From a virus (taxonomy: Duplodnaviria > Heunggongvirae > Uroviricota > Caudoviricetes), in the IMG/VR virus record IMGVR_UViG_2529293043_000033: DNA of 12,085 nt. The stretch is one strand, 5' to 3'. Below the pieces are notes generated by a model. It saw nothing but the letters and a program-made list of their open reading frames with translations, ran no database searches and was not told the DNA's origin. Shown here piece by piece: positions 9,371 through 12,085 of the stretch (its first letter is position 1; each line of letters opens with the position of its first letter). The position numbers and the translations under genes were made by a program.

Positions 9371-9429
9371 TGCTGCGGGTGCTTGAGGCTGTCTGCCTCG
9401 GGCATGCCACCGTAAGGTAGACAGAGAAA

Positions 9430-9497
9430 AGCCCCAGTTAACATTACGCGTCCTGCAAGACGCCTAACATTAATCTGAGGCCAATTTCATGCTAGAC
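9430..9497 (-). ncRNA. Candidate Sok-like antisense RNA (approximate extent)
   Basis: Minus-strand promoter candidate -35 TTGCCT (9532-9527), 17-bp spacer, -10 TAACCT (9509-9504), placing an antisense transcript over the mok/hok leader and start region as in hok/sok loci. The 3' end was not resolved. Confidence 0.3.
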
Positions 9498-9545
9498 ACA
9501 TGTAGGTTAGCCTCTTACGCGCCGAAAGGCAAGGAGAAGCAGGCT

Positions 9546-9701
9546 ATGAAGCAGCAAAAGGCGATGTTAATCGCCCTGATCGTCATCTGTATCACCGTCA
9601 TAGTGACGGCACTGGTAACGAGGAAAGACCTCTGCGAGGTACGAATCCGAACCGGCCAGACGGAGGTCGCTGTCTTCACAGCTTACGAACCTGAGGAGTA
9701 A
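9546..9701 (+). CDS. hokD: Hok/Gef-family type I toxin (HokD/RelF-like)
   Basis: 51-aa product MKQQKAMLIALIVICITVIVTALVTRKDLCEVRIRTGQTEVAVFTAYEPEE, near-identical to HokD/RelF as I recall it. AGGAG 9 nt upstream of ATG 9546. An in-frame upstream ATG at 9489 gives a mok-like leader frame. Confidence 0.85.
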   Translation: MKQQKAMLIALIVICITVIVTALVTRKDLCEVRIRTGQTEVAVFTAYEPEE

Positions 9702-9868: not shown

Positions 9869-10147
9869 ATGGCGCACGATACCAAATTATACAATTCTGA
9901 TGATTCTGCCGTCTTTGCCAGCAGGCGCGGACGGTGTTTTCACGCATTCAAATCTGACTGGTACCAGCATCCCCCATGCACTGAAGAACAGGCCGAATGG
10001 CTCATTCAGTGTTACCGCAGGCGCGGATGCGAGGTTAAAAAAGCCCTTAGCCTCGACTACCGTCACTGGATAATCTCCGTCAGGCTCCCTTACTCCGAAC
10101 GGCCACCGCGTCCGTCCCGCACATTCCAGCAACGGATCTGGAGGTAA
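9869..10147 (+). CDS. Hypothetical protein, Rem-like by position (follows hok as in Qin prophage)
   Basis: First ATG after the terminator (9869), 92 aa. The track's 9788 start lies inside the terminator. Cysteine-rich (C..H ... PPC ... C..RRGC). Assignment is by synteny only. Confidence 0.45.
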   Translation: MAHDTKLYNSDDSAVFASRRGRCFHAFKSDWYQHPPCTEEQAEWLIQCYRRRGCEVKKALSLDYRHWIISVRLPYSERPPRPSRTFQQRIWR

Positions 10148-10148
10148 T

Positions 10149-10832
10149 GTGCGGGTATTACTTCGACCTGTTCTGGTACCGGAACTCGGTCTGGTTATCG
10201 TTAAGCCAGGCCGTGAATCAATGTCAGCATTCCATAACGGCAGAATACTGGTGGAGCCGGAACCAAAAAGCATGCGAGCTCTGCCGTCCGGGGTTGTACC
10301 TGCCGTTCACCAGCCGCTGGCGGAAGATAAATCACTACTGCCATTTTTCAGCGATGAGCGGGTGATCCGTGCTGCGGGTGGCGCTGGTGCACTGTCTGAC
10401 TGGTTATTACGTCACGTGAAATCCTGCCAGTGGCTACACGGTGATTATCATCATAGCGAAACCGTCATTCACCGTTACGGTACCGGCGCGATGGTGTTGT
10501 GCTGGCACTGCGACAACCAGCTGCGGGAGCAGACATCTGATTCACTGGATCAACTTGCTCAACAGAATCTGGCCGCCTGGATGATTGACATCATCCGTCA
10601 CGCAATGAATGGCGCACAGGAGCGTGAATTATCTCTGGCTGAATTATCCTGGTGGGCGGTCCGCAATCAGGTGGCGGACGCGCTACCGGAAGCGGTATTA
10701 CGTCGTTCGCTGGGGTTGCGTGCGGAAAAAATCCGCTCCGTATACCGTGAAAGCGACATCATACCGGGAGAACAGACCGCCACCAGCATACTGAAGCAGC
10801 GCACAAAAAATATTGCGCTACCGTCTCACTGA
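10149..10832 (+). pseudogene. DUF968-like protein (YdfU-like), 3'-truncated by IS insertion
   Basis: GTG 10149 with GGAGG 6 nt upstream. Contains a CQWLHGDYHH ... CWHCDNQ zinc-finger-like motif. The ORF runs to the IS boundary and its stop codon TGA (10830-10832) is the first three bases of the IS inverted repeat; K-12 YdfU is about 349 aa versus 227 here. Confidence 0.6.
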
Positions 10833-10871
10833 ACCGCCCCGGGTTTCCTGGAGAGTGTTTTATCTGTGAAC

Positions 10872-11762
10872 TCAGGCTGCCAGATCATCGTTTCCGATGG
10901 AAGCATAATAAGCTTTTTCTGCTTCTGCCGGAGGAGTATGGCCCAGCCTTCCCAGCAATCGTCGATTGTTATACCAGTCCACCCACGTTAGTGTGGCCAG
11001 TTCCACTTCTGCACGGTTTTTCCAGCTCTTACGGTGTATTACCTCCGCTTTGTAAAGACCATTGATGCTCTCAGCCATCGCGTTGTCATACGAGTCGCCT
11101 GTACTCCCTGTTGATGCCAGTAATCCGGCTTCTTTTAGTCGCTCCGTATAGGCCAGTGACACATACTGAGAGCCTTTATCGCTGTGATGGATGGTGCCAG
11201 ACGGACGACGGGCCCACAACGCCTGCTCCAGCGCATCCAGCACGAATGTCGTTTCCATAGACGATGAGACCCGCCACCCCACGATGTATCCGGCAAACAC
11301 ATCAATGATAAACGCCACATAGACGAAGCCCTGCCATGTGCTGACGTAAGTAAAATCAGCCACCCACAGCTGGTCAGGTCGTTCTGCCACGAACTGACGG
11401 TTTACGCGGTCGCCTGCGGCAACGGCTTTCCGGCTGATGGTCGTACGGACCTTTTTACCCCGGAGAACACCGGCAAGTCCCATAACCGCCATGAGACGTG
11501 CCACTGTACATCTGGCCACCCTGATTCCTTCCCGTAACAACTGACGCCAGACTTTACGCACACCGTACACCTGATGATTTTCATCGTATACGCGCTGTAT
11601 CTCTCTCTTCAGCCAGTCGTCGTGCTGCGCACGGGCACTGCGTTTATCCGGATGATGTCGCTGTTGCTGACAATGGTAATACGTTGACGGGGCAATATGC
11701 AGTTCGCTGCATACCGGTCCGACCCCGTACTGCTCACGCAGCTTATCCAGCAGTGGCATCAT
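10872..11762 (-). CDS. IS3-family transposase OrfB (DDE/integrase catalytic domain)
   Basis: 296 aa; DDE-type motifs (WVADFTYV ... [10 protein letters not shown]); overlaps the orfA stop (ATGA). Confidence 0.9.
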
Positions 11763-12085
11763 TTTTTCCAGAGGCGGTCGAACTCCGCCTTCGCAAAATA
11801 AGCGGAAGCCTGGCGAAGGATATCGTTACTGCGGCGCAGTTCACGATTTTCACGTTCCAGCTCTTTCAGACGCTGACGTTCAGCGCTGGTGAGCCCACCA
11901 TCACCGCCCCCGGTATCCCGCTCATGCTGGCGAACCCAGACACGCAGAGTCTCCGGCGTACAGCCAATCTTTGGGGCAATGGAACAAATTGCCGCCCACT
12001 GTGAGTCATATTCATCCTGACTTTCCAGAACCATACGAATCGCCCGCTGACGGACTTCGGGGGAAAAACGAGTATTTTTAGTCAT
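11759..12085 (-). CDS. IS3-family transposase OrfA (HTH and leucine zipper)
   Basis: 108 aa, [22 protein letters not shown] ... [31 protein letters not shown]. The ATG sits on the last 3 bases of the window. An A6 run at the orfA/orfB junction is the presumed -1 frameshift site. Confidence 0.9.

Follow-up and report, generated by a model that had tools for sequence, protein, structure and literature searches.

Why does a DUF968 gene in a prophage of Escherichia coli end at exactly the nucleotide at which an insertion sequence begins? The question arises near the right end of a 12,085-nucleotide stretch of DNA from a tailed phage (IMG/VR record IMGVR_UViG_2529293043_000033), which as a whole is called the window throughout this text. 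The insertion sites of IS629 are used for the typing of O157:H7 strains and contribute to the decay of their prophages. A first-pass annotation of the locus, made from the sequence alone, had proposed that an IS629-like element had been inserted into the gene, leaving 227 codons on one side and the 3' part beyond the left end of the element, outside the window. It had also named O157 and Shigella genomes as characteristic hosts of IS629-type elements, and the source of the window turned out to be such a strain: the window is part of contig AIFF01000021.1 (87,183 bp) in the draft assembly GCA_000249275.2 of E. coli O157:H7 DEC3B, an isolate obtained from a human in Washington State in 1988 (PMC3146454). 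Prophages are where 62% of the IS629 copies in O157:H7 reside (PMC3271280).

A DUF968 reading frame that stops with the first bases of IS629

The reading frame in question (10149-10832, plus strand) starts with GTG and encodes 227 aa. It consists of the 5' part of a DUF968 gene (codons 1-227, 681 nt, 10149-10829; defined by the ORF list, its translation, Pfam, and alignment with strain 86-24) and a TGA stop codon (10830-10832, plus strand) that coincides with bases 1-3 of the right inverted repeat of IS629. This composition of the stop codon had been proposed before, and both the translation of the ORF and the comparison of the terminal repeats confirm it; across the junction of DUF968 and IS629, frame 0 reads ...ALPSH*. 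In RefSeq, the intact homologue begins at this GTG as well (L001 3450, equivalent to window 10149).

The intact allele, shared by 86-24, F690, and numerous further O157:H7 genomes, has a length of 1050 nt and encodes 349 aa (WP_001265168.1). Up to position 10829 the window is 100% identical to the same prophage in 86-24, with 0 mismatches to the intact allele over 10149-10829, and the match to this allele breaks off exactly after 10829: following ...TCTCAC, the intact gene goes on with ACCCACCAG and the window with TGAACCGCC. At the protein level, residues 1-227 are identical to WP_001265168.1, a DUF968 protein of lambdoid prophages in O157:H7 whose gene likewise lies between hok/sok and rusA. 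Compared with this protein, the product encoded in the window lacks the last 122 residues, and with them 111 of the 171 positions of the DUF968 profile as well as a Cys/His motif resembling that of HNH proteins. YdfU of the K-12 Qin prophage is another lambdoid-prophage protein of this family (PF06147).

The 227-aa fragment scores 51.1 bits against the Pfam profile of DUF968 (PF06147; gathering score 27.8), and it is only residues 160-220 that align, covering profile positions 1-60 of 171. Intact homologues span the entire profile (1-171/171). The full-length domain with profile positions 1-171 and the C-terminal Cys/His motif is absent from the window ORF. Because the profile match is limited to positions 1-60 and the remainder of the gene is found on another contig of the same assembly (AIFF01000027.1, see below), the window ORF is a gene fragment and not an intact member of the DUF968 family, and the earlier notion of a gene truncated to 227 aa holds.

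Two features directly upstream deserve mention in their own right. The preceding gene, which encodes a 92-aa hypothetical protein (a homologue of WP_001341388.1), stops at TAA 10145-10147, and the DUF968 GTG at 10149 begins one base past it, with a GGAGG at 10140-10144; this tight spacing suggests translational coupling of the two genes. Just 5' of the DUF968 operon lies a hok/sok type I toxin-antitoxin module (window 9400-9701), composed of the sok antisense RNA (9400-9551; Rfam RF01794, 71.6 bits, with the 5' end of the match clipped by the start of the searched region) and hokD at about 9546-9701.

The element is a standard copy of IS629

Past 10829 the window reads TGAACCGCCCCGGGTTTCCTGG... 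and contains 1256 of the 1310 bp of an IS629 copy (10830-12085, minus strand; IS3 family, isoform name IS1203), with 10830 as base 1 of the right inverted repeat. A complete copy would occupy 10830-12139, which agrees with the end at 12139 that had been predicted for the element. There are 0 mismatches over these 1256 positions to the 1310-bp copy in E. coli F690, which is flanked by a GTC duplication. The window is also 100% identical here to copies labelled "insertion sequence:IS629" or "IS629 transposase" in the phage records AJ304858.2 and HQ424691.1, so that the original call of an IS629-like element can be upheld. RefSeq labels the same element as "IS3-like element IS1203 family"; the name IS1203 designates an isoform of IS629 (PMC3271280). 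The remaining 54 bp were recovered from the two DEC3B contigs discussed below (L003 and L007) and match as well.

The right terminal inverted repeat (IRR, 10830-10854) was defined by comparison with its counterpart at the left end (IRL): 22 of the first 25 positions agree, and the repeat is perfect over its first 13 bases, TGAACCGCCCCGG. At base 14 the two ends differ (G versus A), and the 14-nt repeat of the first-pass annotation was therefore one base too long. The ends of the element start with 5'-TG and finish with CA-3'.

Between these ends, two overlapping ORFs on the minus strand form the orfA/orfB arrangement of an IS3-family element, both of them antisense to DUF968. In orfB (10872-11762, minus strand), which codes for the catalytic portion of the transposase, Pfam finds an rve integrase core (9.3e-28) and HTH_21 (3.7e-18). 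Its partner orfA (11759-12085, minus strand, 108 aa) contains HTH_Tnp_1 (2.4e-12), and its ATG is the final codon of the window. The overlap of the two (11759-11762) adjoins a run of six A (A6; T6 on the plus strand, 11762-11767), which is spanned by an ALIL pseudoknot, a stimulator of frameshifting (11688-11804, minus strand; Rfam RF01497, 121.5 bits compared with a gathering score of 50). A -1 programmed frameshift from orfA to orfB is predicted at the A6 run; for this element it is taken from annotation, i.e., from the "programmed frameshift" that RefSeq marks on identical IS copies.

The window and the 54 recovered nucleotides together are thus identical to known IS629 of E. coli O157:H7 and Shigella (isoforms IS1203 and IS3411; IS3 family, IS150/IS3 group). 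What they share includes the length of 1310 bp, the TG...CA ends with imperfect terminal inverted repeats, the orfA and orfB genes with A6 frameshift site and ALIL pseudoknot, a 3-bp target duplication (see below), and the location in a prophage as the commonest class of site in O157:H7. The element itself is no different from these copies, and only its insertion site is particular. A scan of the junction for promoters and terminators gave counts that were not above those of shuffled controls.

The other half of the gene lies on a second contig

Contig AIFF01000021.1 ends 35 nt past the window (L003 11972), inside IS629 and 19 nt before the left end of the element; the draft assembly broke within the IS629 repeat. 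On this contig the 227-aa product is annotated as EHU63920.1, "hypothetical protein ECDEC3B_1501 [Escherichia coli DEC3B]". A simple insertion predicts one plausible gene call in the displaced 3' part of the gene, a GTG-started ORF of 110 aa, and contig AIFF01000027.1, from the same DEC3B assembly, carries exactly this sequence as ECDEC3B_1753 (EHU62337.1, likewise annotated as "hypothetical protein").

The second contig starts inside IS629, at IS position 948 (IS part L007 1-363), and then reads ...CCGGGGCGGTTCA/CAC/ACCCACCAGCAACAG... (in a longer reading ...CCAGGATTTCCGGGGCGGTTCA/CAC/ACCCACCAGCAACAG...), which is the left end of the IS followed by a second CAC and then directly by DUF968 codons 228-349. 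The missing 3' portion is therefore indeed found beyond the left end of the element. The left copy of CAC occupies 10827-10829, as seen in the junction sequences, and the right copy lies outside the window on AIFF01000027.1 (L007 364-366). IS629 is known for target duplications of 3-4 bp (PMC3271280), as the first-pass annotation had also anticipated, and the directly repeated CAC is of this size.

Window 10149-10829 and L007 367-735, when joined, give an ORF of 349 aa that scores 252.8 bits for DUF968 over profile positions 1-171/171. The displaced codons carry the HNH-like motif CxxC...HH...C..HH, and the reconstructed protein has a weak match to HNHc_6 over these Cys/His residues. Over nt 1-1031, a range that includes the insertion point at nt 681, the reconstructed gene agrees with the 86-24 allele without a single mismatch.

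The two junctions are located on separate contigs of a draft assembly, and no single sequence crosses the entire IS. The two contigs share 344 identical nt of IS sequence, which gives a combined element of 1310 bp, but because IS629 is present in multiple copies this overlap alone does not prove that they are adjacent. We link them because the breakpoint matches, CAC is duplicated, and the same allele is found on both sides. The presence of CAC on both sides of IS629 points very strongly to a simple transposition into the DUF968 gene of the DEC3B prophage, with duplication of a 3-bp target site. It follows for the annotation of this genome that ECDEC3B_1501 and ECDEC3B_1753, both listed as "hypothetical proteins", are the two halves of one DUF968 gene disrupted by an IS, and that contigs AIFF01000021 and AIFF01000027 can be joined through one IS629 copy.

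The same 110-aa C-terminal ORF of DUF968 is also called in GCA_008711395.1 and GCA_008122345.1 (L005 4284-5333 and L006 4286-5333, respectively). There, DUF968 and several of its neighbors are fragmented without any IS, and these splits resemble the frameshift errors of long-read assembly more than true truncations.

A rare insertion with neighbors in other strains

The junction (window 10630-11030) had no match in a single piece among 5426 complete E. coli genomes and 50,697 phage records; DUF968 and IS sequences were found in these collections only at other spacings. Many complete O157:H7 genomes carry the uninterrupted DUF968 gene, i.e., the empty site. The exact junction of 43 nt gave 0 matches in a contig collection with one genome per species, a result that is uninformative since DEC3B is not the species representative. 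Given that the junction is absent from these complete genomes and phages and that the 227-aa product is found on one contig only when about 15 billion proteins are searched, the insertion appears to be private to DEC3B among the collections covered. As such, its site could serve as a strain marker.

Other O157:H7 strains have IS629 close by. In F690 it occupies L001 5479-6788 in the gene of the Q antiterminator, with GTC as target-site duplication, while in F7349 it begins at L002 3818 in rusA. Together with that of FRIK804, these insertions resemble the one of DEC3B in that the same IS sits in the same orientation in the same 1.4-kb DUF968-rusA-Q segment and splits a gene into annotated partial CDSs, but they differ in the target nucleotides and genes. 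The insertions of F690, F7349/FRIK804, and DEC3B are separate transposition events and not the same allele. This makes at least three independent IS629 insertions within about 1.4 kb, all with the transposase genes running against the phage operon. Clustering of this kind in one orientation may reflect a regional or orientation preference of IS629, or selection against Q expression. That the DUF968-rusA-Q segment is a regional hot spot of IS629 with fixed orientation, or else that the N-terminal 227-aa fragment retains some activity by itself, strikes us as rather unlikely. If there were a hot spot, insertions might be selected for silencing Q-dependent late expression and thereby locking prophages in place.

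Other origins of the truncated gene

These neighboring copies also bring up a different history for the locus, in which an IS629 further downstream would have removed the DNA up to DUF968 codon 227 by an adjacent deletion, or recombined it with another prophage, so that the 3' part of the gene would be lost or of foreign origin. The identical IS629 of F690 has the same orientation and lies 1348 bp further downstream in Q, those of F7349 and FRIK804 lie 617 bp downstream in rusA, the rusA/Q module past the DEC3B insertion is unlike that of 86-24, and deletions in O157 have been associated with IS629 (cited in PMC3271280). However, the other junction displays the CAC duplicate, after which DUF968 resumes at precisely the following base, and neither feature would be present at the end point of a deletion or recombination. 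An adjacent deletion, which we had suspected from the IS of F690, was rejected on account of this reciprocal junction. Recombination between prophages at the IS was likewise discarded, because the switch to the allele of another prophage type comes at nt 1032 of the gene, some 350 bp past the IS and not at the IS itself. Taken together, we consider a deletion or rearrangement to be very improbable.

We see an equally slim chance that the join of DUF968 and IS is a chimera created during assembly and that the gene is intact in DEC3B. AIFF01000021.1 does end inside a multi-copy IS, and the junction is present in one draft assembly only. Yet a random mis-join would not produce two independent contigs with reciprocal junctions at the same nucleotide and a 3-bp duplication typical of IS629, and the data are explained without an intact 349-aa copy of the allele. 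Beyond the stop codon itself, nothing speaks for 227 aa as the natural length of a short DUF968 variant with an IS that merely happens to lie just 3' of the gene; the Pfam profile is broken off at position 60 of 171, genes of the identical allele encode 349 aa, and the 227-aa product is limited to a single contig among about 15 billion proteins. We regard this option as next to impossible.

Proposed insertion event and its consequences

In our reading, IS629 transposed into DUF968 between codons 227 and 228, in a lambdoid prophage of O157:H7 DEC3B and within its early-right ("nin") region. The element encodes a DDE transposase, OrfAB, which would be produced through -1 frameshifting at the A6 run with the aid of the ALIL pseudoknot, and a staggered cut at the target CAC left the 3-bp direct duplication on either side of the 1310-bp element. 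The right end of IS629 brings a TGA into the DUF968 frame and thereby ends the upstream fragment as the 227-aa product, while the C-terminal 122 codons are shifted 1.3 kb downstream, where the 110-aa ORF ECDEC3B_1753 has been called. Of the reading frames that lead into this end of the IS, one stops at once and the others run for more than 30 and for 13 codons. Since one in three frames entering the IS end stops immediately, an in-frame stop supplied by the IS is a one-in-three outcome without special meaning.

We infer that the DUF968 gene is inactivated, since the insertion separates it from its last 122 codons and from the CxxC...HH...C..HH motif that they encode. A polar effect is probable too: IS629 would block transcription from the early-right promoter into rusA and the Q antiterminator gene, which are located downstream in the same early-right transcription unit, and would thus help to render the prophage defective. 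The disruption of DUF968 by IS629 is real but ordinary, an event of a type that is already well documented. Its relevance lies mainly in genome annotation, and no open biological question is touched by it.

A mosaic junction further downstream

The DEC3B prophage is identical to that of 86-24 up to DUF968 nt 1031 and then continues with a different late-control module (from gene nt 1032, at about L007 718; L004 and L008 served for comparison). By sequence comparison, this allele switch reflects the usual mosaicism of lambdoid phages and has nothing to do with the IS. On AIFF01000027.1 the module comprises a RusA of 119 aa, a DUF1133-type Q, an N6/N4 methyltransferase, two tRNA genes, and a NanS-p-like esterase, whereas its counterpart in 86-24 is a RusA and Antiterm module. 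ARAGORN calls the two tRNAs as tRNA-Met(CAT) and tRNA-Arg(TCT). The same module occurs in another prophage of PNUSAE146743, where the first of these tRNAs is labelled tRNA-Ile by RefSeq.
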